Source of the DNA: Desulfuromonadales bacterium
GTDB lineage: Bacteria > Desulfobacterota > JAENJC01
Direction of reading: 5' to 3'
DNA length: 64,000 nucleotides
NCBI GenBank assembly: GCA_919902985.1
Contig: CAKKSC010000022.1
Location: 3,436-67,435, forward strand
Below the pieces are notes generated by a model. It did no database searches, was not told where the DNA came from, and saw nothing but the letters and a program-made list of their open reading frames with translations. Of this stretch, positions 9,069 through 57,653 are shown one piece after another. The position numbers and the translations under genes are program-made. Numbering within the stretch: the stretch's first letter is position 1; every line of letters starts with the position of its first letter.

Positions 9069-9557
9069 ATGGGAAAAAATCATAGAATTATCCCGATGTC
9101 AATACTTGCTCTTATCGCTTGTGCAACACTATTGTCAGCTCAAATGAACGGTCCCGGGCACGAACATGACAAGAAGATGGGCAAAACGGAAAAGACAGAG
9201 CAACACAAAGGTCCTGGCATGGAGATGGACACGCCACGCTGGAAGCAGACGCTCACAGAAGAACAGAAGATGAAGGTCGATAAGATGCATCTGGAATTAA
9301 AAAAGGCCATGAACATACTTGAGTCAAAGATGAATCTGAAAGAGGTTGAGATGAATAACTTTGCTACACAAGATAATGCCGACACTAAAGCCCTTCATCG
9401 TGCTATAGACGAGATAATGGAGCTCAAAAAGGAGATGATGATAAAGAAATATGACCATATAATCGAAATGCGCTCCATACTTACACCTGAACAGCGTGTA
9501 TCCTTTGATCTTGGGCTCAGCAGCGGCATGGGCGGGATGCATCAGGGACATCATTAA
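9069..9557 (+). CDS. periplasmic Spy/CpxP/ZraP-family protein (LTXXQ motifs)
   Basis: Signal peptide; two LTXXQ motifs (LTEEQ, LTPEQ); Gly/His-rich C-terminus; strong RBS. Confidence 0.7.
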   Translation: MGKNHRIIPMSILALIACATLLSAQMNGPGHEHDKKMGKTEKTEQHKGPGMEMDTPRWKQTLTEEQKMKVDKMHLELKKAMNILESKMNLKEVEMNNFATQDNADTKALHRAIDEIMELKKEMMIKKYDHIIEMRSILTPEQRVSFDLGLSSGMGGMHQGHH

Positions 9558-12963: not shown

Positions 12964-13004
12964 TCTAACCTCCTTCCTTGTAGGGGCGAGGCGTTGCCTC
13001 GCCC

Positions 13005-15566
13005 CTACAATAAATGTGTCCTTGTCTTCACGATCCTCAGCAGCCTTGTTTCTTCATCCCCAAGCCCGAAAAGGGCATGCATAAGCTCGCCCGGCTTTAT
13101 GCCTCCTTCCTTCCCGGTCTTTATGGTCATCTCTATTTTATTGTCCACGCTATCAAGCCTTTCAATCAGGGGCCTTATGTCATACTCCTTCCCTGTCCGT
13201 TCTTTTTTAAACAGAAACATCTCTTTTTCCATAAAAGACCGAAGTATTGCCCCATCCTCCAGTGGGCCGGGGACAGTCCCCATTCTACGACTACGCTCCG
13301 CTTCGTCCGTAAATAGGGACAGTCCCCTGTGTATCTCGTAATCCGCCTTTGTAACCGCAGACGTAACGGCAGGGGATGAGATTGGGACATCAATGGCCGT
13401 TTCTATTCTGATCCCTTCAGGAAGTTGCAGGTTAAGTCTGTCCCTTGCCTCGCCAGACGCCAGATATCCCTCTATCTCAATGTCGGCAAACTCCTCCAGA
13501 GATTCCATTCCAAGTGATATTGGAGGAGAGAAGGTGATCTTTGGCGCAGGGTGAAAACCGGCGGAATAACGAACAGGGATACCTGCCCTTCTGACTGCCC
13601 TTGCAAAGAGGCTCGACAGTTCCAGGTGCCCGAGGAACCTGGCGTCTCCCATCTTAGAGTATGTGAGGCGAATCCGGCGGACAGCGAGGGTTTGCGCTGG
13701 TTTAAGAAGCGGTCTCGGACGCCTCCTGACCTCACCTTCTCCAACCCTGTTTTTTATCGTCTGAAAATCGCACAGTCCGCACCCCGTGCAGTCGTCATAT
13801 CGGCAGTCTGGTGTGAATACTTCGTCAAGGCCCTTCTTCGCCTCAAGCTTAAGGTATTTCTTTGAAATGCCTGAATCTATATGGTCCCAGGGCAGGGTTT
13901 CCTCCATCCCCCTTTTCCTGAGGTAAAAGAGAGGGTCTATGCCGCAATCTTCAAATGCCTTCTGCCAGAGGTCAAACCTGAACACCTCCCCCCATCCGTC
14001 AAACCTGCACCCAAGCTCAAAGGCCATGGCTATACTCTTTGACAGCCTCCTGTCACCTCTGGCAAAGACCCCCTCCAGCTCACTCATGGCAGGTTCGTGC
14101 CATTTGAAGGTCACCCTGTTTTTCTTCAGCTCCATCCTGAGGAGGTCGTGCCTCCTCTTTGTCTCCTTAAGGCCTATCTGCTCTTCCCACTGGAAAGGGG
14201 TATGGGGCTTAGGCACGAAGGTTGCGACCGACGCGGTGACGTTTTTCCCTCCGGCCTTTCTGGCAATTTTTAGGGTCTTGCCGGAAAGTTCGGCAATAGC
14301 CATTAAATCTTCATCCGTCTCTGTCGGGAGGCCTATCATGAAATAGAGTTTTATGGTCTCCCATCCCGCCTCAAATACCTGCTGGACTGAGTTCAGGAGG
14401 TCAGCCTCCGTTATCCCCTTGTTTATCACATCCCTGAGCCTCTCACTACCGGCCTCAGGGGCCATGGTGAAACCGGTCTTCCTGACCCGACTTATCTCCG
14501 ATATCAGTTCAGGGCTCATAGTGTCAACACGCATGGAAGGCAGCGAGATGGCAATTTTTTCATCTGAATATCTGTCCATCAGATTGGCAAGCAGATCACT
14601 TATACAGGAATAGTCTCCAGTGGAAAGGGAGAGGAGGGTCAGGTCCTCATATCCGGTGGAACGTAACGCCTTCTCTGCTATCTCCTGAAGCTTTTCCGGA
14701 GTCCTCTCCCTCGTAGGTCTGTATATCATCCCGGCCTGGCAGAACCTGCACCCTCTGGTGCATCCGCGCGTTACCTCCAGTGTCACCCTGTCATGGACTA
14801 TAGCCATGAAAGGGACTATCGGCCTGTCTGGATATGGAACCGTGTTTAGGTCTGCGACTGTCCTCTTTTCGACCTTTGGATAGTCATCATATTGTGGCCT
14901 TATCTCCTTCATCGTCCCATCATTGTTATAAGAGACGTCAAAGAAAGACGGCACATAGATGCCCTTTATGCCTGTCAAGGCTCGAAGGAGGCCCAACTTC
15001 CCACCTTCGCATCCTCTCAACTTCCAACTCCTGTATGCTTCCGCTATCTCAGGGAATGCCTCTTCCCCGTCTCCTATCAGCGCAGCATCCAGAAAATCGG
15101 CTACAGGCTCCGGGTTGAAGACACATGGGCCCCCTGCAATAATCAGAGGGAAGGACTCATCCCTCTCTGATGCCCATATAGGGATACCGGCCAGGTCCAT
15201 CATATTCAGCATGTTGGTATGAGAGAGGTCGTACTGGATTGAAAAACCTATTATGTCGAACTCCAGAAGATGGAGGTTTGATTCCAGGGAAGAAAGTGGA
15301 AGGGACCTTTCTCTTAGAATTTTCTCCATATCGATCCAGGGGGCATATACCCTCTCTGCCGCGACTTCCGGGATTCTGTTCAATATGTGATAGAGGATAT
15401 GGAGTCCCTGATGCGACATCCCAACTTCATATACATCAGGAAATGCCAGGGCGATCTTGACGTCTACCTTATCGAGATCTTTGTGGATTGAGTTGACCTC
15501 TGTCCCAAGGTAGCGGCTCGGCTTGCTGACGAGAGGCAGGAGGTCTTTAAAAGACGGGTTGTCCAT
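13005..15566 (-). CDS. B12-binding radical SAM protein fused to DUF2344-like C-terminal domain
   Basis: CTRGCRFC (Cx3Cx2C) cluster motif; N-terminal B12-binding-like region; 853 aa. Confidence 0.85.
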   Translation of the reverse strand: MDNPSFKDLLPLVSKPSRYLGTEVNSIHKDLDKVDVKIALAFPDVYEVGMSHQGLHILYHILNRIPEVAAERVYAPWIDMEKILRERSLPLSSLESNLHLLEFDIIGFSIQYDLSHTNMLNMMDLAGIPIWASERDESFPLIIAGGPCVFNPEPVADFLDAALIGDGEEAFPEIAEAYRSWKLRGCEGGKLGLLRALTGIKGIYVPSFFDVSYNNDGTMKEIRPQYDDYPKVEKRTVADLNTVPYPDRPIVPFMAIVHDRVTLEVTRGCTRGCRFCQAGMIYRPTRERTPEKLQEIAEKALRSTGYEDLTLLSLSTGDYSCISDLLANLMDRYSDEKIAISLPSMRVDTMSPELISEISRVRKTGFTMAPEAGSERLRDVINKGITEADLLNSVQQVFEAGWETIKLYFMIGLPTETDEDLMAIAELSGKTLKIARKAGGKNVTASVATFVPKPHTPFQWEEQIGLKETKRRHDLLRMELKKNRVTFKWHEPAMSELEGVFARGDRRLSKSIAMAFELGCRFDGWGEVFRFDLWQKAFEDCGIDPLFYLRKRGMEETLPWDHIDSGISKKYLKLEAKKGLDEVFTPDCRYDDCTGCGLCDFQTIKNRVGEGEVRRRPRPLLKPAQTLAVRRIRLTYSKMGDARFLGHLELSSLFARAVRRAGIPVRYSAGFHPAPKITFSPPISLGMESLEEFADIEIEGYLASGEARDRLNLQLPEGIRIETAIDVPISSPAVTSAVTKADYEIHRGLSLFTDEAERSRRMGTVPGPLEDGAILRSFMEKEMFLFKKERTGKEYDIRPLIERLDSVDNKIEMTIKTGKEGGIKPGELMHALFGLGDEETRLLRIVKTRTHLL

Positions 15567-44010: not shown

Positions 44011-45079
44011 AGGCATCCCACATCCCCCGTCCTTACGGGACATCGGCGAATTCGGCCTGATTAAGAGGATTGCACGGAAGGCAAAGAGAAAAGATACATC
44101 CGTCCTTATTGGGATCGGTGATGACGCGGCGGTGCTTACCCCCCCCATCTCCCCCTTATTAAGGGGGGGCGAAGGGGGGGTGGCGCCCCTACTGGTAACA
44201 ACAGATTCGCTCATAGAGGATGTGCATTTCAGACGGGATTATCAGCCGGAAGCCATAGGATGGAAGGCCCTGGCAGTAAATATAAGCGATATTGCCGCAA
44301 TGGGGGGAGTCCCAGAGCATTACCTCCTTTCGCTTGGGGTCCCGGAAGGGATATCAATCGAGTATATAGACCGTTTTGTTAGGGGTATGACTGAAGCAGC
44401 TGAGGAATATGGGCTCTCCATGATCGGGGGGGACACCACCTCATCTCCTGACAAGTTTTATATATCCGTTACCGTATTGGGGAAGGGAAGCGAGACCCTC
44501 TTACTAAGGAAAGGTGCAAGGGCTGGAGATGTTATATTTGTCACAGGGACGTTAGGGGATTCGGCGCTGGGGCTTAAGATATTAGAAGATAAGAAGGTAA
44601 GCATTTGGGAAGATGAACGTTTCTCAACCGCTCAACCTCTCAACCGCTCAACCTCTCAACTCATAAACCGCCATCTCAGGCCCACTCCAAGGGTCAAGGA
44701 AGGCATACAACTGGCAAAGACCGGCATGGTTACATCTATGATAGATATAAGCGACGGACTCCTGTGTGACCTTGGGCATATATGCGAAGAGAGCAGGGTG
44801 GGGGCCAGGGTACGGATAGACGAGCTTCCACTGTCACAGGGATTCAATACCTTCTCGGCCAAATATGGCGGAATAGAGCTTGCCTTGAGCGGTGGTGAGG
44901 ATTACGAACTTTTGTTTACAGTGCGAAGCAAAGATGTTAAAAGCTTCATGAGTATGACCGAAGGGACAAAATATACGCCCATAGGCGAGGTCATGAAGGA
45001 CAGGGTAATTGAGGTAATTGGAGCCGATGGCAGCAGGTATCTTCCCAAAAGTAGCGGATACGAGCACTTCAGAAGGTAA
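44000..45079 (+). CDS. thiL: thiamine-monophosphate kinase with two internal repeat insertions
   Basis: GIGDDAAVL...LVTTDSLIEDVHF and GGDTTSSPD ThiL/AIR-synthase-like motifs; 359 aa (longer than usual). Confidence 0.8.
   Translation: MRAEGIPHPPSLRDIGEFGLIKRIARKAKRKDTSVLIGIGDDAAVLTPPISPLLRGGEGGVAPLLVTTDSLIEDVHFRRDYQPEAIGWKALAVNISDIAAMGGVPEHYLLSLGVPEGISIEYIDRFVRGMTEAAEEYGLSMIGGDTTSSPDKFYISVTVLGKGSETLLLRKGARAGDVIFVTGTLGDSALGLKILEDKKVSIWEDERFSTAQPLNRSTSQLINRHLRPTPRVKEGIQLAKTGMVTSMIDISDGLLCDLGHICEESRVGARVRIDELPLSQGFNTFSAKYGGIELALSGGEDYELLFTVRSKDVKSFMSMTEGTKYTPIGEVMKDRVIEVIGADGSRYLPKSSGYEHFRR
44139..44180 (+). repeat. GC-rich palindromic mini-element in-frame in thiL
   Basis: CCCCCCCCATCTCCCCCTTATTAAGGGGGGGCGAAGGGGGGG encoding PPISPLLRGGEGGV. 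Confidence 0.6.
44623..44661 (+). repeat. tandem repeat (CTCAACCGCTCAACCT)x2.4 inside thiL
   Basis: ctcaaccgctcaacctctcaaccgctcaacctctcaact encoding QPLNRSTSQLINR. Confidence 0.6.
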
Positions 45080-45965: not shown

Positions 45966-46021
45966 AACTATTGTAGAGACGCCCAGCCGGGGCGTCTCTA
46001 CAATAATAAAGGAGGTTCATT

Positions 46022-47761: not shown

Positions 47762-47875
47762 AACCCACCCTCACTTCAATCCTCTACCCACGTGGCATAA
47801 ATCATTGAGGGAGAGGAAACCTCTCTTATTCCCTCCCCTTCACAAGGGGAGGGTTAGGGTGAGGATGGGGTAAAT
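47762..47875. repeat. intergenic cluster of GC-rich hairpins related to the in-frame palindromic elements
   Basis: aacccaccctcacttcaatcctc ... GAGAGG-aaac-CCTCTC ... CCCTCCCCTT-caca-AGGGGAGGG ... gggttagggtgagg. Confidence 0.4.
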
Positions 47876-48303: not shown

Positions 48304-50265
48304 ATGGATATGTCCAAATATAAAAGCATGTTTTTAACTGAGGCCAGGGAACATCTTGGTAATATGAACCAGGTTGTGCTTGTTCTGGAAAAAGATCCTG
48401 GAGACAAGGGGAATATAGACTCACTTTTCAGATCGGCCCATTCAGTTAAAGGCATGGCTGCATCCATGGGTTATGATGGTATAGCTGAGCTTAGCCATAA
48501 AATGGAAGATATGATGGACAAGTTTCGCAAGGGGGAGATGCCTATAACGCCGGAGGCGACCGACATCCTTCTGGAAGGAGTTGACGCCCTTGGGCAGATG
48601 ATAGATGCGGTGGAGCAGGACAGGATATCTGATGTGGATGTCTCCAGGACAATAGAACGGATAAAGGGGTACGGGGCACAAAAGTCAGTGGTCAGTCTGA
48701 ACCCTGCTACTGAAGTCGAGCCACCGGCCACTGACTACCGGCCACTGACCACCGGGTTCAATATCTCCATAGAAATCTCCCAGGACTCTCCGGCGCCTTC
48801 TGTCAGGGCCGTCCTGATACTTAGAAAACTAAAAGAGCTTGGAGAGGTCATATCGACAAACCCTTCCGAGGCGGACCTGAAAGGCAGGAAGTTGTCAGGG
48901 CCGTTGTCTGTTAAGTTTGTATCTGACACGGCTCAGGAGAAGATTGAAGAGGTTGTCAGGGGGATGGGAGAGGTGTCTTCCCTAAAGGTCGAGCCTCTGA
49001 AAGATGAGGTTCAGGCTCCTGATTTTAGAACTCCAATCGCCGCTCCCCAAAAAGAATCGGTGAAAAGTGAAGCAGAGGAACCGAAGGGATCGAGACCCGA
49101 AATCCCTTCAATAGGGCCTTTGCAGCAGACCGTTAAGGTCAATACCGCCCTTCTCGACTATTTTGTGAATGCCATTGGCGAACTAATCATAAATAAGTCC
49201 AGGCTCCATGATATCTCACGGGGGATACCTTCCAAGGAGTTAAGTGATGGGCTAAACCATCTTGACAGGCTTGTAAGAGACCTGCAAAACCAGGTGATGA
49301 GCGTCAGGATGATGCCTATGGAAAGCTTAATGGAGAGGTTCCCAAGGATTGTCCGGGACCTGGCCAGGAAAGAGGGGAAAGAAGTCACTCTTAACATGGA
49401 GGGGCAGGACATAGAACTGGACCGTTCCATTATAGAAGGACTGGGAAATCCTCTGATACATATAATCAGGAATGCTGTGGACCACGGCATTGAACTGCCT
49501 GACGACAGAAGGGCCGCCGGCAAACCTCTCCCTGCCAAGATTTTAATAAAGGCATCCAGGGAAAAGGACCAGGTTTTCATAGAGATATCCGATGACGGAA
49601 AGGGAATGGACCCTGAAAGGCTTAAGGAAGCAGCAATAAACAAGGGGCTGATAACCCCTGAACAGGCAGCAGGGATGAGTAAAAAGGAAGCGCTCCTCCT
49701 TACATGTATTCCCGGCTTCAGCACGGCCAAGGTCGTTTCCGACATATCAGGAAGAGGCGTCGGGATGGACGCCGTGAAGTCGGCAATAGAGCCTATCGGC
49801 GGCAGTATTGATATAGATTCCAGGCCGGGGGCAGGGACAAGGATTACACTTAAGCTCCCTCTGACAGTCGCCATAATCCAGTCCCTTTTGATTGAAGCCG
49901 CCCAGGAGATATATGCCATTCCGATAAGCAGGGTGCTGAAGACTATGGAGATAGACAGGGATACTGTGAAGACCAGTCAGAAGCAGAGTCTGATAGATTT
50001 TGACGGCTTTCTTATACCTCTCCTCAGCATTAGGAAGATATTTACACTGCCGCCCTTGGCAGGGCAGGCCAAATTTATACCGGTTGTAGTCACTGAGGTT
50101 AAAGGTAAGATCGTAGGACTAGTGGTAGACAGGCTGGTTGGACAACAGGAAACCTTTATAAGGCCGCTTGGAAGGCCCCTCAACAAGATAGGCGGCCTGT
50201 CCGGAACCACTGTCCTCGGTAACGGCCGGACCATTTTTTTATTGGATGTGGGGAATATAGTATGA
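48304..50265 (+). CDS. cheA: chemotaxis histidine kinase CheA
   Basis: P1 Hpt (SAHSVKG), dimerisation domain, HATPase and C-terminal CheW-like domain; a repeat-derived linker insertion after P1. Confidence 0.9.
   Translation: MDMSKYKSMFLTEAREHLGNMNQVVLVLEKDPGDKGNIDSLFRSAHSVKGMAASMGYDGIAELSHKMEDMMDKFRKGEMPITPEATDILLEGVDALGQMIDAVEQDRISDVDVSRTIERIKGYGAQKSVVSLNPATEVEPPATDYRPLTTGFNISIEISQDSPAPSVRAVLILRKLKELGEVISTNPSEADLKGRKLSGPLSVKFVSDTAQEKIEEVVRGMGEVSSLKVEPLKDEVQAPDFRTPIAAPQKESVKSEAEEPKGSRPEIPSIGPLQQTVKVNTALLDYFVNAIGELIINKSRLHDISRGIPSKELSDGLNHLDRLVRDLQNQVMSVRMMPMESLMERFPRIVRDLARKEGKEVTLNMEGQDIELDRSIIEGLGNPLIHIIRNAVDHGIELPDDRRAAGKPLPAKILIKASREKDQVFIEISDDGKGMDPERLKEAAINKGLITPEQAAGMSKKEALLLTCIPGFSTAKVVSDISGRGVGMDAVKSAIEPIGGSIDIDSRPGAGTRITLKLPLTVAIIQSLLIEAAQEIYAIPISRVLKTMEIDRDTVKTSQKQSLIDFDGFLIPLLSIRKIFTLPPLAGQAKFIPVVVTEVKGKIVGLVVDRLVGQQETFIRPLGRPLNKIGGLSGTTVLGNGRTIFLLDVGNIV
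48684..48753 (+). repeat. palindromic repeat (family B) in-frame in the cheA P1-P2 linker
   Basis: GTCAGTGGTCAGT...CCGGCCACTGACTACCGGCCACTGACCACC; shares CCGGCCACTGACCACC and the GTGGTCAGT arm with the galU terminator repeat at 37133-37190. Confidence 0.5.
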
Positions 50266-50908: not shown

Positions 50909-51398
50909 GGTAGTGGTCAGAATAGCGGATTACAGGATTGCTGAGGCGCCGGCAACCCTCGTCACTTACGGTCTTGGGTCGTGCGTAGCCGTTGCCCTCT
51001 ATGACACTGAGACAAGGATGGGCGGTTTATGCCATATAATGCTTCCCAGCAGCTCCAAAGCAAGGGATTCAGGGAACCCAAAAAAGTTCGCCGACATCTG
51101 CATCTCCGAGATGTTAGAGGATATGGAGAATAGAGGCTGTAATGTGGACAGGATGGTGGCCAAGATAGCCGGGGGCGCCAGGATGTTTGATCTCCCGAAC
51201 AAGGAAAAATCATCTTCTATAGGGGAGAGAAACCGTGATGCAGTATTGATCGAGCTTGCAAAGAGAAGGATCCCGCTGATTGCGGAGGATACCGGCGAAA
51301 ACTATGGACGGACTATGGAGTTCCACCTCGGGAACGGTGATATGCTGGTAATATCTCTGCGTGGCGGAACAAAGGTGTATAGAGACGAGGCACTATGA
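50901..51398 (+). CDS. cheD: chemoreceptor glutamine deamidase CheD
   Basis: GLGSCVAVALYD...GGLCHIMLP catalytic Cys/His region. Confidence 0.8.
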   Translation: MDKVVVRIADYRIAEAPATLVTYGLGSCVAVALYDTETRMGGLCHIMLPSSSKARDSGNPKKFADICISEMLEDMENRGCNVDRMVAKIAGGARMFDLPNKEKSSSIGERNRDAVLIELAKRRIPLIAEDTGENYGRTMEFHLGNGDMLVISLRGGTKVYRDEAL

Positions 51399-52147
51399 AT
51401 GTTAATGTATTAACAGAACTCCTGGATGGCGTAAAAAACGGGACCGTTTCAACCGAATCAGCCCTGTCCAGGCTTAAGGCGCTCCCTTTTGAGGACATGG
51501 GTCAGGCCGTAATTGACAGCCACAGGGAGTTGAGGCAGGGGTTCCCAGAGGTCATCCTCGGAGAAGGGAAAAGCACAGCGCAGATAATAAGCATAATCGA
51601 AAAACTGCGTTCCAACGGCTCCAGCATCCTGGCCACCAGGATTGATGCTGCAAAGGCGGTAGCGATCATCAAGGCAGTCCCATCTGTTCAATACAACAGC
51701 GATGCCAGAACCCTTACCTTTATGGAAGGAGAGTTTAAAGAAAAAGGAAAGGGTATCATCATGGTGATATCCGCCGGAACATCAGATATCCCTGTTGCGG
51801 AAGAGGCCGCAATTACGGCCTTTATGATGGGGAACAGGGTGGACAGGCTTTATGACGTTGGAGTGGCCGGTATCCATAGACTCTTTTTCCACAGGGAGCG
51901 TATAACCTCTGCCGGCGTCCTGATTGTCTGCGCCGGGATGGAAGGCGCCCTCCCGAGCGTTGTGGGAGGGATAGTGGCCAGACCGGTCATTGCAGTGCCT
52001 ACGAGCGTTGGGTACGGTGCCAGCTTTGGCGGCATCAGCGCCCTTCTCGGGATGCTCAACTCCTGTGCCCCTGCTGTAACGGTGGTGAATATTGACAATG
52101 GCTTCGGGGCAGGTTATGCGGCAAGCCTGATAAATAGAAAAGATTGA
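51395..52147 (+). CDS. larB: nickel-pincer cofactor biosynthesis protein LarB (PurE-like)
   Basis: PurE-like core (AGMEGALPSVV...VPTSVGYG...VVNIDNGFGA) with an N-terminal extension. Confidence 0.8.
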   Translation: MNVNVLTELLDGVKNGTVSTESALSRLKALPFEDMGQAVIDSHRELRQGFPEVILGEGKSTAQIISIIEKLRSNGSSILATRIDAAKAVAIIKAVPSVQYNSDARTLTFMEGEFKEKGKGIIMVISAGTSDIPVAEEAAITAFMMGNRVDRLYDVGVAGIHRLFFHRERITSAGVLIVCAGMEGALPSVVGGIVARPVIAVPTSVGYGASFGGISALLGMLNSCAPAVTVVNIDNGFGAGYAASLINRKD

Positions 52148-52148
52148 T

Positions 52149-53375
52149 ATGATAGCATACTTTGATTGTTTTTCAGGTATCAGCGGTGATATGATTGTGG
52201 GGGCCTTCCTGGATGCCGGAGTTCCGTTTGAGTGGCTGAAGGATGAGCTGGAGAAACTCTCACTGAAAGGATATAAGCTGGGGGTAGAGGACGTTAAACG
52301 GGGAGGAATAGGAGGGAAGAAATTCCATGTAGAGACCCCCCCCCTCAATCCCCTCCTTAGTAAGGGGGGGGTAGTTGAGAGAAGACTTGGAGACATAACG
52401 GGGATAATCGAGAAAAGCACCCTCTCGAAAGATGTTAAAGAGCTGAGCATTCTGGTATTTCAAAGACTTGCCGGGGCAGAGGCAAGGGTACACAGGATCG
52501 GGGTTGACGATATACACTTCCATGAGGTAGGCGGAGTAGACTCCATTATTGATATTGTGGCAGCATCCCTGTCCCTCTCTTTTCTGAAAATAAAAGAGGT
52601 TTATGCATCAGAGATTCCAGTGTCTCACGGCATAATATTGAGTAGTCACGGGAGGTTGCCTCTGCCCGCGCCTGCCACGATGGAGCTGCTGAAGGATGTC
52701 CCTGTTTGTCAAAGTTCAACAACAGGCGAGCTTGTGACACCAACCGGTGCAGCCTTTCTTTCCGTAGTATGCAAAGGGTTTGGTCCCATCAGACCTATGA
52801 GGCTTAAAGGTATTGGATATGGGGCTGGAGAAAGGGATAATGAAGGTCTTCCGAACCTGCTGAGGGTAATGATTGGAGAGCCACCCCCCCTCAATCCCCC
52901 CCTTAATAAGGGGGGGGCGAAAGGGGGGGTAGAGGTTGACTCCGTCATGGTCATAGAGTCCAACATAGACGACATGAGCCCTGAGATTTACGGTTTTGTC
53001 ATGGAGCGGCTCTTTGATGAGGGGGCGCTGGATGTTTCTCTGATACCTGTCTACATGAAAAAAGGGAGGCCTGGAACCATTGTCCAGGTCTTGTGTGAGG
53101 CTGGGATGGAAAAGTCGCTTGGAGAGTTGCTCCTTAAGGAGACCTCGACAATAGGTGTCAGGTTTTACAGGACGGACAGATTGAAGCTGCAGCGGGAAAC
53201 CGTTGAGGTAAAGACCAGGTTTGGCACAGTAAGAGCGAAGGTGGCAAGGTCTCCATGGGGGAACAAGGCGCGGCCTGAGTACGAAGACTGCAGGAAGGTG
53301 GCTATGGATATGGGAGCTCCCCTTCTGGATGTCTATACAGAAGCTGTTAAGGAGTTTAAGGAAAATGACGAATAG
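52149..53375 (+). CDS. larC: nickel-pincer cofactor biosynthesis protein LarC (DUF111) carrying two in-frame palindromic insertions
   Basis: N-terminus MIAYFDCFSGISGDMIVGAFLDAGV matches the LarC family. Confidence 0.8.
   Translation: MIAYFDCFSGISGDMIVGAFLDAGVPFEWLKDELEKLSLKGYKLGVEDVKRGGIGGKKFHVETPPLNPLLSKGGVVERRLGDITGIIEKSTLSKDVKELSILVFQRLAGAEARVHRIGVDDIHFHEVGGVDSIIDIVAASLSLSFLKIKEVYASEIPVSHGIILSSHGRLPLPAPATMELLKDVPVCQSSTTGELVTPTGAAFLSVVCKGFGPIRPMRLKGIGYGAGERDNEGLPNLLRVMIGEPPPLNPPLNKGGAKGGVEVDSVMVIESNIDDMSPEIYGFVMERLFDEGALDVSLIPVYMKKGRPGTIVQVLCEAGMEKSLGELLLKETSTIGVRFYRTDRLKLQRETVEVKTRFGTVRAKVARSPWGNKARPEYEDCRKVAMDMGAPLLDVYTEAVKEFKENDE
52336..52371 (+). repeat. GC-rich palindromic mini-element in-frame in larC (copy 1)
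   Basis: CCCCCCCCCTCAATCCCCTCCTTAGTAAGGGGGGGG encoding PPLNPLLSKGG. Confidence 0.6.
52884..52929 (+). repeat. GC-rich palindromic mini-element in-frame in larC (copy 2)
   Basis: CCCCCCCTCAATCCCCCCCTTAATAAGGGGGGGGCGAAGGGGGGG encoding PPPLNPPLNKGGAKGG. Confidence 0.6.
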
Positions 53376-54800: not shown

Positions 54801-57653
54801 TTGAATTATAAAGAAACAATAAACCTTCCCTTAACAGAGTTCCCCATGAGGGCGAACCTTAACCAGAAGGAACCTGAACTCCTTAAGGAATGGGATGAGG
54901 CAGGACTTTATCAAAAGATCAGGGACAAGTCAAAGGGAAGGCCGAGATACATCCTCCATGACGGGCCACCTTACGCCAACGGCCATATACACATAGGGCA
55001 CTCCATAAACAAAATTTTGAAAGATATTGTTGTAAAGTCGCGGCAGATGTCCGGCTTCGACGCCCCTTATATCCCGGGATGGGACTGCCACGGCTTGCCT
55101 ATAGAACTTCAGGTGGATAGGGACCTTGGCTCAAAGAAGCAGGGAATGAGCAAGCTTGATATCCGCAGGCACTGCCGTGAGTATGCCGGAAAGTTCATAG
55201 ATATCCAGAGGGACGAGTTTAAGAGACTCGGCATCCTCGGAGACTGGGGAAGGCCCTATCTAACGATGGACTTCGCCTATGAAGCCGCTACAGCAAAGGA
55301 GCTTGGAAAGTTCTTTGAAAAGGGCGCAGTTTACAAGGGCCGCAAGCCTGTCCACTGGTGCTCATCCTGCCAGACGGCCCTGGCAGAGGCGGAGGTGGAG
55401 TACAATGAAAAGACATCGCCGTCGATTTACGTGAAGTTTAAGGTAGGGGCGTATGGCAATACGCCCTTACAAAAAATAGTTGGTGACCGGCATGCCTCCA
55501 TCGTTATCTGGACAACCACCCCCTGGACCATACCTGCCAATATGGCTATATCGGTACACCCTGATTATGACTATTCGATTGTTGAAACTCCCCCCATCCT
55601 CCTTCTTGCTAAAGAAGGGGAGCCGGAGGCGGGGGAGTTCTTGATCCTTGCCACAGAACTCGTCCCTTCCTGCATGGAGAAATGGGGCATTTCAGATTAC
55701 AAGACCATAGCGAAGGTCAAGGGCAATGAACTCAAGGGTATAGTCTGCAGGCATCCTTTTGTCGAGCGCTACTCTGTTGTCGTCACAGGCACCCATGTTG
55801 CCCTCGATGCCGGGACCGGCTGTGTTCACACTGCCCCGGGTCATGGAGAGGACGATTACCGCATAGGACTCGAATATGGTCTTGAGATATATACCCCGGT
55901 TGACAAGGCAGGGAGATTTACTGATGACGTCCCGTTCTTTGCCGGTGAGCAGGTATTCAAGGCCAACAAGGGTGTCATAGAAAAGCTTAATGAGGTTGGG
56001 GCTCTGATAAAGGAGGAGTCCATTCAGCACTCCTATCCTCACTGCTGGAGATGCAAGGGGCCGATCATCTTCAGGGCCACGGAGCAGTGGTTCATTTCCA
56101 TGGAAAGGAACGACCTCAGGAAGAAGGCCATTGATGCAATAAACAAAGAAATCCGCTGGATACCACACTGGGGGAAGGACCGTATTCTTGGAATGATTAC
56201 CAACAGGCCTGACTGGTGTATATCGAGGCAGAGGACATGGGGTGTGCCAATTACTGTCTTTTACTGCAAGGGTTGCGGCGAGATCCTTTCTGATAAGGCT
56301 GTATTCGACCACGTGGTCTCACTCTTCAAAAATGGCGGAGCTGATGTCTGGTTTGATAAGGAGGTAAGCGAGCTACTGCCTCCCGGTTCTAAATGCAAGA
56401 AGTGCGAAGGAAGCGAATTCGAAAAGGAAATGGACATACTTGACGTATGGTTCGACTCAGGGGTGAGCCATGCAGCTGTATTGGAGTCGAGGGAAGAACT
56501 CTCCTCCCCTGCCGACCTTTATTTAGAGGGGAGCGACCAGCACAGGGGATGGTTCCATTCCTCCCTCCTTGCCTCTATGGGGACCAGGGACAGGGCCCCT
56601 TACAAGGCAGTCCTGACCCACGGTTTCGTGGTGGACGGCGAGGGGAAGAAGATGTCCAAATCTTCAGGAAATGTCGTCGCCCCGCAGGAGATAATAAAAA
56701 AATATGGTGCAGAGGTCTTGAGGCTCTGGGTTGCGGCAGAGGACTACAGGGACGACATCCGTATTTCAGAAGGAATAGTCGTCCAGCTCTCCGATGCATA
56801 TAAGAAAATAAGAAACACCTTCCGTTATTTATTGAGTAACATTTATGACTTTGACCCTTCAAAACAGCTGGTGCAGTACAAAGATATGCTTGAGATAGAC
56901 AGGTGGGCGTTGCTTCGGCTCTATACCCTTTCAAACAGGGTTGAAAAGGCTTATAACGATTTCGAGTTCCATCAGATATACCATTCGACCCACGCCTTCT
57001 GCGTAAACGATCTTTCATCCTTTTACTTCGATATCCTGAAGGACAGACTTTATACAGCCAGAAAAGATTCTGTCGAGAGGCGTTCGGCCCAGACGGCACT
57101 CTTCCACATTCTCAATTCAATGGTAAGATTGATGGCCCCCATATTCTCCTTCACATGCGAGGAAGTATGGAAATTTATGCCAACAACTCCCCCCAACCCC
57201 CTCTTTAGTAAAGAGGGGGTGCCGAAGGCGGGGGAGTTTAAAAGAGAAGAGTCCGTCCATCTTGTCTCTTTCCTTAAATCTAACGAGGAATGGAAGGATG
57301 ATGAGCTTCTGAAAAGCTGGGAGATGCTTCGATCAGTCAGGGAAGAGGTTCTAAAGGTCCTTGAGGTGGCCAGAAGAGAGAAGATGATAGGCAACTCCCT
57401 TGAAGCGGAGGTAACTCTTTACGCTCCGGATGACCTCTACAAGTTGCTCAGGGTCTACGAAGGTCAACTGAAATACATATTCATCGTATCCAGTGTCATC
57501 CTCTACAGTGAAGATAGAGGGAAGCCTGTCGAGGTCACGGTAGCACAGGCATCCGGGCAGAAGTGCGAGAGGTGCTGGAACTACGACATGACGGTTGGTA
57601 TTAACGGTGAACATCCGACTGTGTGTGACAGGTGCGTGAGGGCGGTGAGTTAA
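54801..57653 (+). CDS. ileS: isoleucine--tRNA ligase (type 1) carrying two in-frame palindromic insertions
   Basis: HIGH ([11 protein letters not shown]) and KMSKS motifs, C-terminal zinc finger CERCWNY...CDRC; TTG start. Confidence 0.95.
55588..55637 (+). repeat. GC-rich palindromic mini-element in-frame in ileS (copy 1)
   Basis: CTCCCCCCATCCTCCTTCTTGCTAAAGAAGGGGAGCCGGAGGCGGGGGAG encoding [17 protein letters not shown]. Confidence 0.6.
57187..57236 (+). repeat. GC-rich palindromic mini-element in-frame in ileS (copy 2)
   Basis: CTCCCCCCAACCCCCTCTTTAGTAAAGAGGGGGTGCCGAAGGCGGGGGAG encoding [17 protein letters not shown]; near-identical architecture to copy 1. Confidence 0.6.

Follow-up and report, generated by a model that had tools for sequence, protein, structure and literature searches.

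Two palindromic segments in frame within larC of an uncultured bacterium: probable copies of a dispersed hairpin-forming repeat

Introduction

The closest known systems to the element found in larC are the intragenic REPs and the RPEs of Rickettsia. Intragenic REPs (repetitive extragenic palindromes) carry a GTAG or CGTC tag and are located within genes (Di Nocera et al. 2013, PMC3733652), and the REP/REPIN-RAYT systems have been described by Bertels & Rainey 2011 (PMC3116915). RPEs (Ogata et al. 2000 in Science), as far as they are summarised in PMC10969869, are palindromic repeats of a selfish type found in frame in unrelated metabolic genes at positions compatible with fold and function; according to this summary they measure about 100–150 bp, are restricted to Rickettsia, and encode one conserved peptide per family. 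The G-rich heptamer repeats of Nostoc and Xanthomonas occur preferentially as four units and are able to form quadruplexes (Rehm et al. 2015, PMC4692102). They are reportedly depleted within coding sequence (PMC4692102), whereas copies of the element treated here lie in frame inside genes.

This element was encountered in the larC gene of an uncultured lineage, the nearest named relatives of which are labelled Deltaproteobacteria, Geobacter or Nitrospirota. The window, i.e. the whole stretch of DNA which was analysed, is 64 kb long. The original prediction, made from the sequence alone, was that larC carries two copies of one palindromic element which does not belong to LarC. The evidence favours the view that the two segments are copies of a dispersed, noncoding, nested-hairpin repeat which became lodged in frame and is turned over by conversion or replacement, and this is considered probable.

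The larC Gene and Its Two Copies of the Element

The larC reading frame, which codes for the nickel-pincer cofactor nickel-insertion protein, matches the Pfam family PF01969 over its full length (residues 3–396, E 1.6e-135), and the NCBIfam models LarC1 and LarC2 match amino acids 78–242 and 266–382, respectively. The dN/dS of larC versus orthologs is 0.12–0.17, i.e. purifying selection, and histidines 115, 123, 125, and 167 are kept, which suggests at the level of the sequence that the host gene is functional. The protein of the window includes the peptide stretch PPLNPPLNKGGAK.

Table 1. Positions of larC, its neighbour larB, the copies of the element, and the GTAG-REP-like palindromes in the window
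Feature	Position	Strand	Composition and remarks
larB	51395-52147		directly upstream of larC
larC (nickel-pincer cofactor nickel-insertion protein)	52149..53375	+	ORF, 408 aa; hosts both copies
larC copy 1, three-run	52335..52372	+	A-C9 / TCAAT / CCCCTCC-TTAGTAA-G8 / T
larC copy 2, four-run nested hairpin	52883..52930	+	A-C7 / TCAAT / C7-TTAATAA-G8 / CGAAA / G7-T
thiL copy, type A	44138..44181	+	A-C8 / ATCT / C5-TTATTAA-G7 / CGAA / G7-T
ileS site A copy, type B	55586..55639	+	AACTCCCCCC...CCTTCTT-GCTA-AAGAAGG...GCCGGAGGC-GGGGGAGTT; 18 aa encoded
ileS site B copy, type B	57185..57238	+	AACTCCCCCC-AA-CCCCCTCTTT-AGT-AAAGAGGGGG-TGCCGAAGGC-GGGGGAGTT; 19 aa encoded
GTAG-REP-like palindrome, separate family	12978-13010		
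GTAG-REP-like palindrome, separate family	45969-46005		

The core which the two copies had been said to share was confirmed as the exact 16-mer CCCCCCCTCAATCCCC, found in each of them, at 52338 and 52884; these are its two occurrences in the 64 kb window, and allowing three mismatches added one further match, with a shuffle mean of 1.49. Within the window the TCAAT linker is confined to the two larC copies. The loop difference described earlier (TTAGTAA versus TTAATAA) and the absence of the CGAAA-G7 tail from copy 1 are seen in the sequence, and both copies are translated in frame inside the single reading frame of 408 amino acids. Copy 1 is translated to T63-PPLNPLLSKGG-V75, and copy 2 to PPPLNPPLNKGGAKGG, approximately residues 245–260, which lies in the linker between LarC1 and LarC2. 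Both other frames of copy 2 stop immediately, either at TAA in the loop or at TAG just past the last G-run.

Folded as single-stranded DNA, copy 2 gives a nested hairpin with an energy of -20.2 kcal/mol (z = -3.7), and the fold of copy 1, where the inner arm is mismatched, is on par with shuffles (z = -0.8). With a G-quadruplex defined by four G3+ tracts and loops of 1–7 nt on one strand, G8-CGAAA-G7 of copy 2 and G7-CGAA-G7 of the thiL copy would by inspection fit the motif G3N1G3N(5-6)G3N1G3. Three contigs, assembled independently from other sequencing runs, match the locus at 100% identity across 10.6–12 kb, with equal homopolymer run lengths in all three, and the larC copies are therefore no assembly artefact.

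Position of the Segments in the LarC Protein

Ortholog alignment, structure, and a presence/absence survey all supported the view that the segments are foreign to LarC. In an alignment of 34 sequences both are missing from homologues at 52% identity or less, and they are missing from the solved LarC structures 12bi and 6bwo, the M. thermoacetica protein (12bi) having 8 amino acids fewer at site 1 and 10 fewer at site 2. The Pfam and NCBIfam models are likewise without them; the LarC1 model ends before copy 2 and the LarC2 model starts after it. Native LarC residues were rejected as an explanation on the basis of these distant homologues, structures, and models. Copy 1 is absent even in 16 of 18 close relatives (62–89% identity), and where these relatives have 15 nt (xKEEQ) the window genome has 39 nt. 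Both sites vary from one sister genome to the next, and members of the family are scattered through many other genes.

Copy 1 ends 3 residues ahead of the position aligned with H70 of M. thermoacetica LarC. The linker which accommodates copy 2 comprises 23 amino acids in the window versus 13 in solved LarC, and is flexible in the cryo-EM structure (PMC13510736). In an AlphaFold model with a mean pLDDT of 85.8, values below 50 were obtained for residues 66–75 and 249–259, plus a three-residue loop at 126–128. The segments thus map to low-confidence loops of an otherwise confident model, and both inserts are predicted to be disordered loops at tolerant spots of the protein. They are presumably neutral for LarC function. 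Mutagenesis of the M. thermoacetica LarC linker showed that its length and composition affect activity, so that strict neutrality of copy 2 is not guaranteed.

Related Copies in the Window and in Other Genomes

The window contains five copies of the family, all intragenic and in frame, with one in thiL, two in larC, and two in ileS (Table 1). The thiL copy encodes PPISPLLRGGEGG, the element being read there in another frame. At ileS site A the DNA is predicted to form a three-way fold of -18.3 kcal/mol (z = -4.3), and at site B a fold of -22.3 kcal/mol (z = -6.2); the net gain at site B is 48 nt for an element of 52–54 nt.

In metagenomes, more than 120 stretches with the same C-run-TCAAT-C7-TT core were found in unrelated genes. 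Four-run TCAAT copies of metagenomes lie in long reading frames in 25 of 32 cases, and three-run copies of genomes in 69 of 125. A third or fourth run was present in 137 of 150 genome hits of the architecture, and all ten host reading frames tested, in Cyanobacteria, Nitrospirota, and others, are real genes. The same arrangement of runs is present in Cyanobacteria, Planctomycetota, and Nitrospirota, including finished genomes of cultured cyanobacteria, and one such copy lies between both Pfam domains of an alanine racemase. As these are sequences of low complexity, the resemblance to the elements of other phyla could be due to convergence. The TCAAT subfamily showed an apparent strand bias (35 sense and 7 antisense) which three-run elements in named genomes did not reproduce (37 to 32). 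Orthologous duplicates and the TGA in ATTGA probably inflate the ratio of 35:7, and the bias was set aside as evidence. Viral contigs yielded only 10 stretches, and hence no sign of phage carriage. Searches of the literature brought up no account of the DNA motif, of the peptides (PPLxKGG), or of poly-C/poly-G hairpin repeats.

The interpretation of the two larC copies as stages of a decay series held in part. A full four-run copy at site 1 in another lineage, L010, and the mismatched inner arm of copy 1 agree with decay, but three-run hairpins are the commonest form elsewhere (125 of 150 genome hits), so copy 1, instead of being truncated, may represent the standard form with three runs.

Turnover at the Sites and Conservation of the DNA

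Among the relatives compared, copy 1 has a counterpart only in L010, which is not a sister of the window genome; L011 has GTAAAGGGGGGGG at site 1 without the C-rich half. Site 2 is filled in sister genomes by type A, by type B, by a GTAG-REP-like palindrome (L006), by (TCATCCC)x4, or by (CGAACCCT)x4, and four-unit heptamer or octamer repeats are found at the same larC and ileS sites in sister genomes. The thiL site is empty in orthologs or holds a different GTAG-type palindrome. The element at ileS site A is missing from outgroup IleRS and varies between relatives. The one at site B is found only in the window genome when compared to five relatives aligned at the DNA level and to all outgroup IleRS, a different GTAG-REP-like insert being present there in L011/P0125 and P0122. 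In two separate sister pairs types A and B are swapped, both with 51 nt and with unchanged flanks. The two types differ at four stem positions on both arms with no pair broken. The stems came out of register when types A and B were aligned with MAFFT, and these compensatory differences were therefore read from the sequences alone.

Inside the element none of 12 and none of 13 four-fold sites differ, whereas in the flanks 54% and 51% of such sites do (P = 8e-5 and 1e-4, dS ~1.5). The identical type-A sequence occurs at site 2 in lineages with flanks saturated at synonymous sites. The frame in which type B is read in ileS differs from that in larC of relatives, and the TCAAT subfamily uses all three frames, in genes for IleRS, PurL, a P-type ATPase, GH63, and Kelch proteins. 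The conserved unit is the DNA and not the peptide. Conservation at synonymous sites together with subtype swaps at a fixed site points to a genomic pool as the source of replacement or gene conversion; selection on DNA or RNA structure would account just as well for runs which are perfect at synonymous sites.

Comparison with Known Systems

The element family consists of a short imperfect palindrome in many dispersed copies. With REPs it shares the short (20–50 nt) GC-rich palindrome, the arrangement as singlets, inverted doublets, and tandem arrays, the in-frame location of some copies within housekeeping genes (uvrA, uvrC, and replication genes among them), and the lack of target-site duplication, with insertions proposed to be neutral because they lie in linkers or loops. 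In contrast to REPs it has no 5' GTAG or CGTC tag and ends with 5'-AC(T)C6...G6(A)GT-3'; where GTAG is found at all, it lies 3' of the copy and overlaps the last G-run, and the copies in thiL, ileS, and other phyla are without it. Further differences are the stems, which are homopolymeric C and G runs in two nested tiers, a run architecture common to several phyla, and the lack of preference for extragenic sites, five of five window copies and the 25 of 32 four-run metagenome copies being located in genes or long reading frames. True GTAG-REP-like palindromes coexist with the element in the same genomes as a separate family.

Like RPEs, the element is inserted in frame at structurally tolerated positions of functional genes. 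Unlike these it measures 38–54 nt and is read in three frames, its hosts are free-living environmental lineages, and its sites turn over between repeat families. Small dispersed repeats (SDR) and G-rich heptamer repeats are similarly very small, capable of forming hairpins, and without a known transposase, and such small repeats co-occur and nest with heptamer tandem repeats. The SDR of Nostocales are reportedly 21–27 nt long and differ in sequence from the element. Homopolymeric-tract contingency loci mediate phase variation in Neisseria, Haemophilus, and Campylobacter. The element resembles them in its coding C and G runs of 7–9, where a slip by one base truncates the protein, but its runs belong to a dispersed palindrome in housekeeping genes and show no length polymorphism in independent assemblies. 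A MITE was rejected, as the element is below 55 nt versus 70–300 bp, shows no duplication in five comparisons, and replaces target bases. Introns and inteins were rejected because the elements are far too short, and a CRISPR-like array was rejected as well. A terminator and promoter scan found nothing at the elements, and an intrinsic terminator was rejected. In Rfam, run at gathering and at E-value thresholds, there was no match at the gathering threshold in the window; the best one below it, Pab91 with 29.5 bits versus 71, is at chance level.

Alternative Explanations

The element might be kept for a function, be it through structure of the mRNA or DNA (hairpin, G-quadruplex, or i-motif) together with poly-proline pausing, or as a slippery site for recoding or phase variation. 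In larC, translation would then pause at the LarC1/LarC2 boundary, or a slip in C7/G8 would give LarC1 on its own, in parallel to the programmed larC1/larC2 frameshift of L. plantarum. Copy 2 does lie exactly at the domain junction where L. plantarum frameshifts, its alternative frames stop at once, and its G8-N5-G7 matches the quadruplex motif, but the same element is found in unrelated genes, in three frames, and in loops which are no domain boundaries. Synonymous sites within the runs have been conserved over dS ~1.5, LarC activity depends on linker length and composition, and the copy in alanine racemase separates two Pfam domains; against this, sister genomes hold unrelated sequences or nothing at these places, the homopolymers do not vary in length among three independent assemblies, and there is neither an Rfam family nor a terminator signature. 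A functional role is thus judged unlikely. It is very unlikely that the nested hairpins are a cross-phylum DNA switching between hairpin, quadruplex, and i-motif, actively maintained as a pause or recoding device of linkers which releases LarC1 alone in larC. If true, a slip in the larC C7/G8 runs would mimic the programmed frameshift of Lactiplantibacillus plantarum.

Quite unlikely, too, is a local origin, in which a native stretch rich in purines underwent template switching or slippage and intragenic conversion gave rise to copy 1 from copy 2, at a distance of 546 bp. It is partly refuted by the identical core in unrelated genes of metagenomes, and speaks poorly to the related copies in thiL and ileS and to the identical type A at site 2 between saturated flanks, even if it would agree with replaced target nucleotides in place of a target-site duplication, with a native site-1 sequence GTAAAGGAAGAG which resembles the 3' half of the element, GTAAGGGGGGGG, with the half-element of L011, and with the restriction of the TCAAT linker to larC within the window. 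That the segments are native conserved residues of LarC, or a sequencing or assembly artefact such as poly-G, has hardly any probability left. Close relatives are similar in total length (394–404 amino acids), but the alignments and the three identical assemblies refute this reading; the segments are lacking in the family models, in the solved structures, and in homologues of no more than 52% identity, and the architecture recurs in finished genomes of cultured cyanobacteria.

Origin and Significance of the Element

For the favoured explanation, a dispersed noncoding repeat lodged in frame, the following course of events can be proposed. A repeat of 38–54 nt, built of outer C-run, short linker, inner C-run, TT-NNN-AA loop, inner G-run, short linker, and outer G-run, would have been dispersed in the genome lineage and come to lodge in frame inside larC. 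C-runs encode proline and G-runs glycine in whatever frame or strand, and most loop variants are free of stops, so that the insert would usually be a harmless disordered Pro...Gly loop. The occupied site would then turn over, the copy being overwritten by the current subfamily of the respective genome through gene conversion or re-insertion, or alternatively replaced by other repeat classes; overwriting of occupied sites would keep the runs perfect at synonymous positions. Gene conversion is presumably the homogenising process. By analogy with REP/REPIN and RAYT, copying may proceed through a hairpin or single-strand intermediate by a trans-acting enzyme. A tblastn search for a Y1 transposase or RAYT in 1.95 Mb of element-bearing loci gave no match with an approximate IS200 TnpA query of low sensitivity for RAYT. 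Codon-aligned comparisons of filled and empty sites revealed no target-site duplication at five sites, and the junctions are untidy.

These findings would extend selfish DNA in coding genes past the RPEs of Rickettsia and the GTAG/CGTC REPs to a much smaller, homopolymer-based hairpin family which gives Pro...Gly in any frame and has look-alikes in Cyanobacteria, Planctomycetota, and Nitrospirota, likewise in housekeeping genes. The repeated overwriting of one site by different repeat families, with runs that are perfect at synonymous positions, provides a tractable case for gene conversion or re-insertion among dispersed micro-repeats. As the inserts bring in low-complexity segments and long homopolymers, they may confuse alignments, domain boundaries, and the calling of frameshifts and pseudogenes in metagenome-assembled genomes. 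The sites of insertion amount to a natural linker-scanning experiment which marks tolerant positions in LarC, IleRS, and ThiL. In LarC these are the loop by the histidine patch and the LarC1-LarC2 linker, which tolerates a near doubling of its length, and this bears on the recent finding that the linker influences activity.

Sequence and Translation of the Two larC Segments

Both larC segments are nested palindromes in which runs of C and G surround a TT-NNN-AA loop. The window agrees exactly with their description in the original prediction, and also with their translation in frame within LarC. The reading frame additionally matches the NCBIfam models LarC1 (amino acids 78–242) and LarC2 (amino acids 266–382) and adjoins larB on its upstream side. 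Copy 1 is translated to T63-PPLNPLLSKGG and copy 2 to PPPLNPPLNKGGAKGG, which is placed exactly between the two NCBIfam models. The exact 16-mer CCCCCCCTCAATCCCC occurs only twice in the 64 kb window. As single-stranded DNA, copy 2 folds to a hairpin of two tiers (-20.2 kcal/mol, z = -3.7); copy 1, which lacks the outer G-run and has a mismatch in its inner arm, folds no more stably than shuffled sequences. Three contigs, independently assembled from the data of other sequencing runs, match the window at 100% identity over 10.6–12 kb, which shows that both segments and the lengths of their runs are genuine. An independent assembly contig (L001) stops midway through the hairpin of ileS site B, equivalent to window position 57212, as would be expected of a repeat that disrupts assembly from short reads.

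Features of the window and their positions
Feature	Position	Description
larC	52149-53375	408-aa ORF holding both copies in frame; full-length Pfam PF01969 match
Copy 1 (larC site 1)	52335-52372	A-C9-TCAAT-CCCCTCC-TTAGTAA-G8-T
Copy 2 (larC site 2)	52883-52930	A-C7-TCAAT-C7-TTAATAA-G8-CGAAA-G7-T
thiL copy	44138-44181	type A, in frame
ileS copy	55586-55639	type B, in frame
ileS copy	57185-57238	type B, in frame
Third variable ileS site	55447-55466	small palindrome GGGCGTATGGCAATACGCCC
GTAG-tagged REP-like perfect palindrome	12978-13010	TTGTAGGGGCGAGGCG-TTG-CCTCGCCCCTACAA
GTAG-tagged REP-like perfect palindrome	45969-46005	TATTGTAGAGACGCCC-AGCCG-GGGCGTCTCTACAATA
thiL repeat	44622-44661	in-frame CTCAACC(G/T), ~five units, encoding STAQPLNRSTSQL
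Palindrome of another type	47826-47870	CCCTCCCCTTCACAAGGGGAGGG then TTAGGGTGAGG; intergenic, upstream of cheY-like gene
cheA repeat	48716-48753	in-frame repeated 14-nt unit ACTGAC(T/C)ACCGGCC
LarC residues 77-79	52377-52385	E-R-R or E-R-K in this clade

Inserts in LarC and Variation among Related Genomes

Among 34 aligned LarC proteins, homologues of 52% identity or less carried neither segment. The solved full-length LarC 12bi from M. thermoacetica lacks eight residues at site 1, and its site-2 linker has 13 residues as compared to 23 in the window protein. The AlphaFold2 model of the window LarC, of good overall confidence (mean pLDDT 85.8), drops below 50 only at residues 66–75, 126–128, and 249–259, the first and the last of these being the two elements. 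Site 1 is the loop joining strand 54–62 to helix 80–89, ending three residues ahead of the equivalent of H70 in the M. thermoacetica histidine patch, and site 2 is the LarC1-LarC2 linker, described as long and flexible in a cryo-EM study (PMC13510736). Alignment, structural mapping, and the polymorphism of the larC sites among sister genomes all support the original view of the segments as repeats foreign to LarC. Native sequence or an artefact was rejected as an explanation and has hardly any probability left, the segments being absent from distant homologues and identical in three contigs. Purifying selection on the window larC is evident from a dN/dS of 0.12–0.17, and histidines H115, H123, H125, and H167 are retained; no evidence for a new LarC function was obtained. 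The counterpart of residues 77–79 in M. thermoacetica is H70-R-H72, within a histidine patch reported to be essential.

Nine syntenic loci from sister genomes were compared, which share the gene order thiL-cheR-mcp-cheW-cheY-cheA-cheC-cheD-larB-larC-GGDEF-ileS. At larC site 1 the element is found only in the window genome and in a non-sister locus (L010, protein P0014), there as full four-run form with two C-runs, two G-runs, and the tail ACAAAA-G7; two relatives carry different, longer inserts and the remaining fourteen some 15 nt that code for xKEEQ or xEEEQ. The content of site 2 varies from genome to genome: type A in the window genome, L004, L009, and L010, type B (AACTCCCCCC...CCCCCTCTTT-AGT-AAAGAGGGGG...GGGGGAGTT) in L005, L007, and L252, a GTAG-REP-like palindrome in L006, (TCATCCC)x4 in L008, and (CGAACCCT)x4 in L011. 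Variation of this kind is also seen at the site in thiL and at three sites in ileS, and the IleRS proteins of outgroups (Geobacter, Nitrospirota, and others) are without the inserts, with typically 924 amino acids versus 950 here. The two larC copies may form a decay series, as also proposed originally, given the missing tail and mismatch of copy 1 and the four-run form in L010; since three-run forms, with one run fewer, are common in their own right, copy 1 may instead be an ordinary element of that form.

Further repeats were observed. The equivalent of the third ileS site holds in-frame heptamer repeats in L005–L011, (CAGGGGT)n, (CAGTGGT)n, or (GAGAAGC)n. A type-B element at ileS site A of L005 (~9190-9260) contains an extra 18 nt (CACCCATCCGGGTATAAA) in its 3' inner arm, which suggests that the elements are themselves targets of further insertion. 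The two GTAG-tagged palindromes of the window are intergenic or at gene ends, and palindromes of this type lie in frame in larC (L006), thiL (L007, L008), and ileS/larC (L011, 'SGVVESGLSP') of relatives. Ortholog sequences differ at the site of the thiL repeat. The palindrome upstream of the cheY-like gene gave a sub-threshold Rfam match to whalefall-1 (21 bits, threshold 37), and similar copies occur in L011 (7874-7927).

A Dispersed Family

A metagenome scan with the query CCCCCTCAATCCCCYCCTT gave more than 120 stretches among the matches listed, with 32 four-run and 33 three-run elements after removal of duplicates. Of the 32 four-run copies among these listed matches, 25 fall within long ORFs, and elements are hosted by genes for IleRS, PurL, a P-type ATPase, GH63-like hydrolases, and a Kelch protein. 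Three frames are used (PPLNPPLxKGG, PPQSPPYQGG, and PPSIPPLxRGG), and type B reads QLPPSPSLVKRGSEGEL in the larC of relatives, a frame other than that used in ileS. The consensus element encodes a stop-free Pro-Pro...Gly-Gly peptide in two of three frames per strand, the remaining frame having a TGA within the ATTGA linker. Judged from these sequences, DNA rather than peptide is the conserved unit of the family.

Species-representative genomes were scanned for C7-TT-NNN-AA-G7, extra runs not being demanded. The 150 matches listed came from Microcoleus, Oscillatoria, and other Cyanobacteria, Gemmataceae, Isosphaerales, Pirellulaceae, Nitrospirae/Thermodesulfovibrionia, Patescibacteria, and others; 137 of them carry one or two additional C6+/G6+ runs within 7 nt (125 three-run, 12 four-run). 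Singlets, inverted doublets, and tandem arrays were seen, with inter-run linkers varying by lineage. All ten host ORFs tested are real genes: LeuRS, CobA/HemD, PrmC, an aminotransferase, sarcosine oxidase alpha, TPR-CHAT, and, with in-frame hairpins, alanine racemase (L091 1727-2950), where the hairpin sits between the two Pfam domains, UvrA (L023 1807-4587), UvrC (L045 2998-5148), and DnaX (L060 3-2909). These elements may be homologous to the window family or may resemble it by convergence. Viral contigs contributed 10 stretches only. One contig (L261 4070-11352, IMG/VR 3300032160_001195), which may be planctomycete rather than viral, has ten C7-TTCGCAA-G7-CAG-G7 hairpins within 7 kb, each ending a ~200–300 bp repeat unit, like a larger composite element.

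Turnover and Possible Origin

At four-fold degenerate sites of larC, the window genome and L009 disagree in 54% of cases outside the elements (dS ~1.5), as compared to none of 12 in the site-2 element (P = 8e-5); between L004 and L009 none of 13 differ there (P = 1e-4). Types A and B alternate at site 2 in two close pairs (L004 and L252, L009 and L007), with an equal 51-nt span and flanks otherwise alike, and, read by eye, show differences at four positions of the stem, present on both arms with pairing kept. Because of the synonymous-site conservation, the type swaps, and the paired stem differences, the comparison indicates that resident copies do not slowly diverge in place but are overwritten, through gene conversion or re-insertion, from a pool within the genome. 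The conservation may also reflect selection acting on the structure.

We consider it probable that a REP-like nested-hairpin micro-repeat lands at, or is copied into, many sites, that intragenic copies would persist only where additional residues are tolerated, and that these would with time become homogenised or be replaced. The effect in LarC would simply be the addition of two disordered Pro/Gly loops, presumably neutral, with homogenisation probably by gene conversion and some enzyme presumably acting on an intermediate that is a hairpin or single-stranded. A simple transposon is disfavoured by the lack of target-site duplication at five filled-versus-empty site comparisons and by larC site 1, where 39 nt stand in place of 15 target nt; a Y1 transposase was not detected by tblastn with an IS200 TnpA query in 1.95 Mb of element-bearing loci, a weak test. 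A functional translational pause or recoding element would fit the position of copy 2 at a domain boundary, the immediate stops in both alternative frames, and the quadruplex potential, yet is improbable in view of site turnover to unrelated sequences and of elements in unrelated genes with every frame used. Slightly less probable still is a local de novo origin of the larC segments, which is contradicted by their dispersal across metagenomes.

Relation to Known Repeats

Of the known cases, those closest to this REP-like repeat comprise intragenic REPs (Di Nocera et al. 2013, PMC3733652), REP/REPIN-RAYT systems, and Rickettsia palindromic elements (summarised in PMC10969869). REPs of the intragenic kind are reported to be frequent in genes for replication and repair (PMC3733652), and the architecture described here likewise occurs in UvrA, UvrC, and DnaX of other phyla. 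Unlike REPs, the window-family elements carry no GTAG or CGTC tag and are not preferentially extragenic. No RAYT was found in a weak search of element-bearing loci. They are far shorter than the Rickettsia elements and read in several frames, and lack inverted terminal repeats of MITE type or target-site duplications. The elements behave like REPs or Rickettsia palindromic elements yet depart from them in defining features. G-rich heptamer repeats of Nostoc and Xanthomonas prefer four units and reportedly are under-represented within coding sequences (Rehm et al. 2015, PMC4692102), whereas here heptamers occupy the same intragenic hot spots as the elements. No published account of a poly-C/poly-G nested hairpin family was found in the literature searched, the coverage of which was incomplete. 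The larC case is a clear, well-documented example of in-frame hairpin repeats of an apparently undescribed variant family, of interest for its turnover at fixed hot spots and its synonymous-site conservation.
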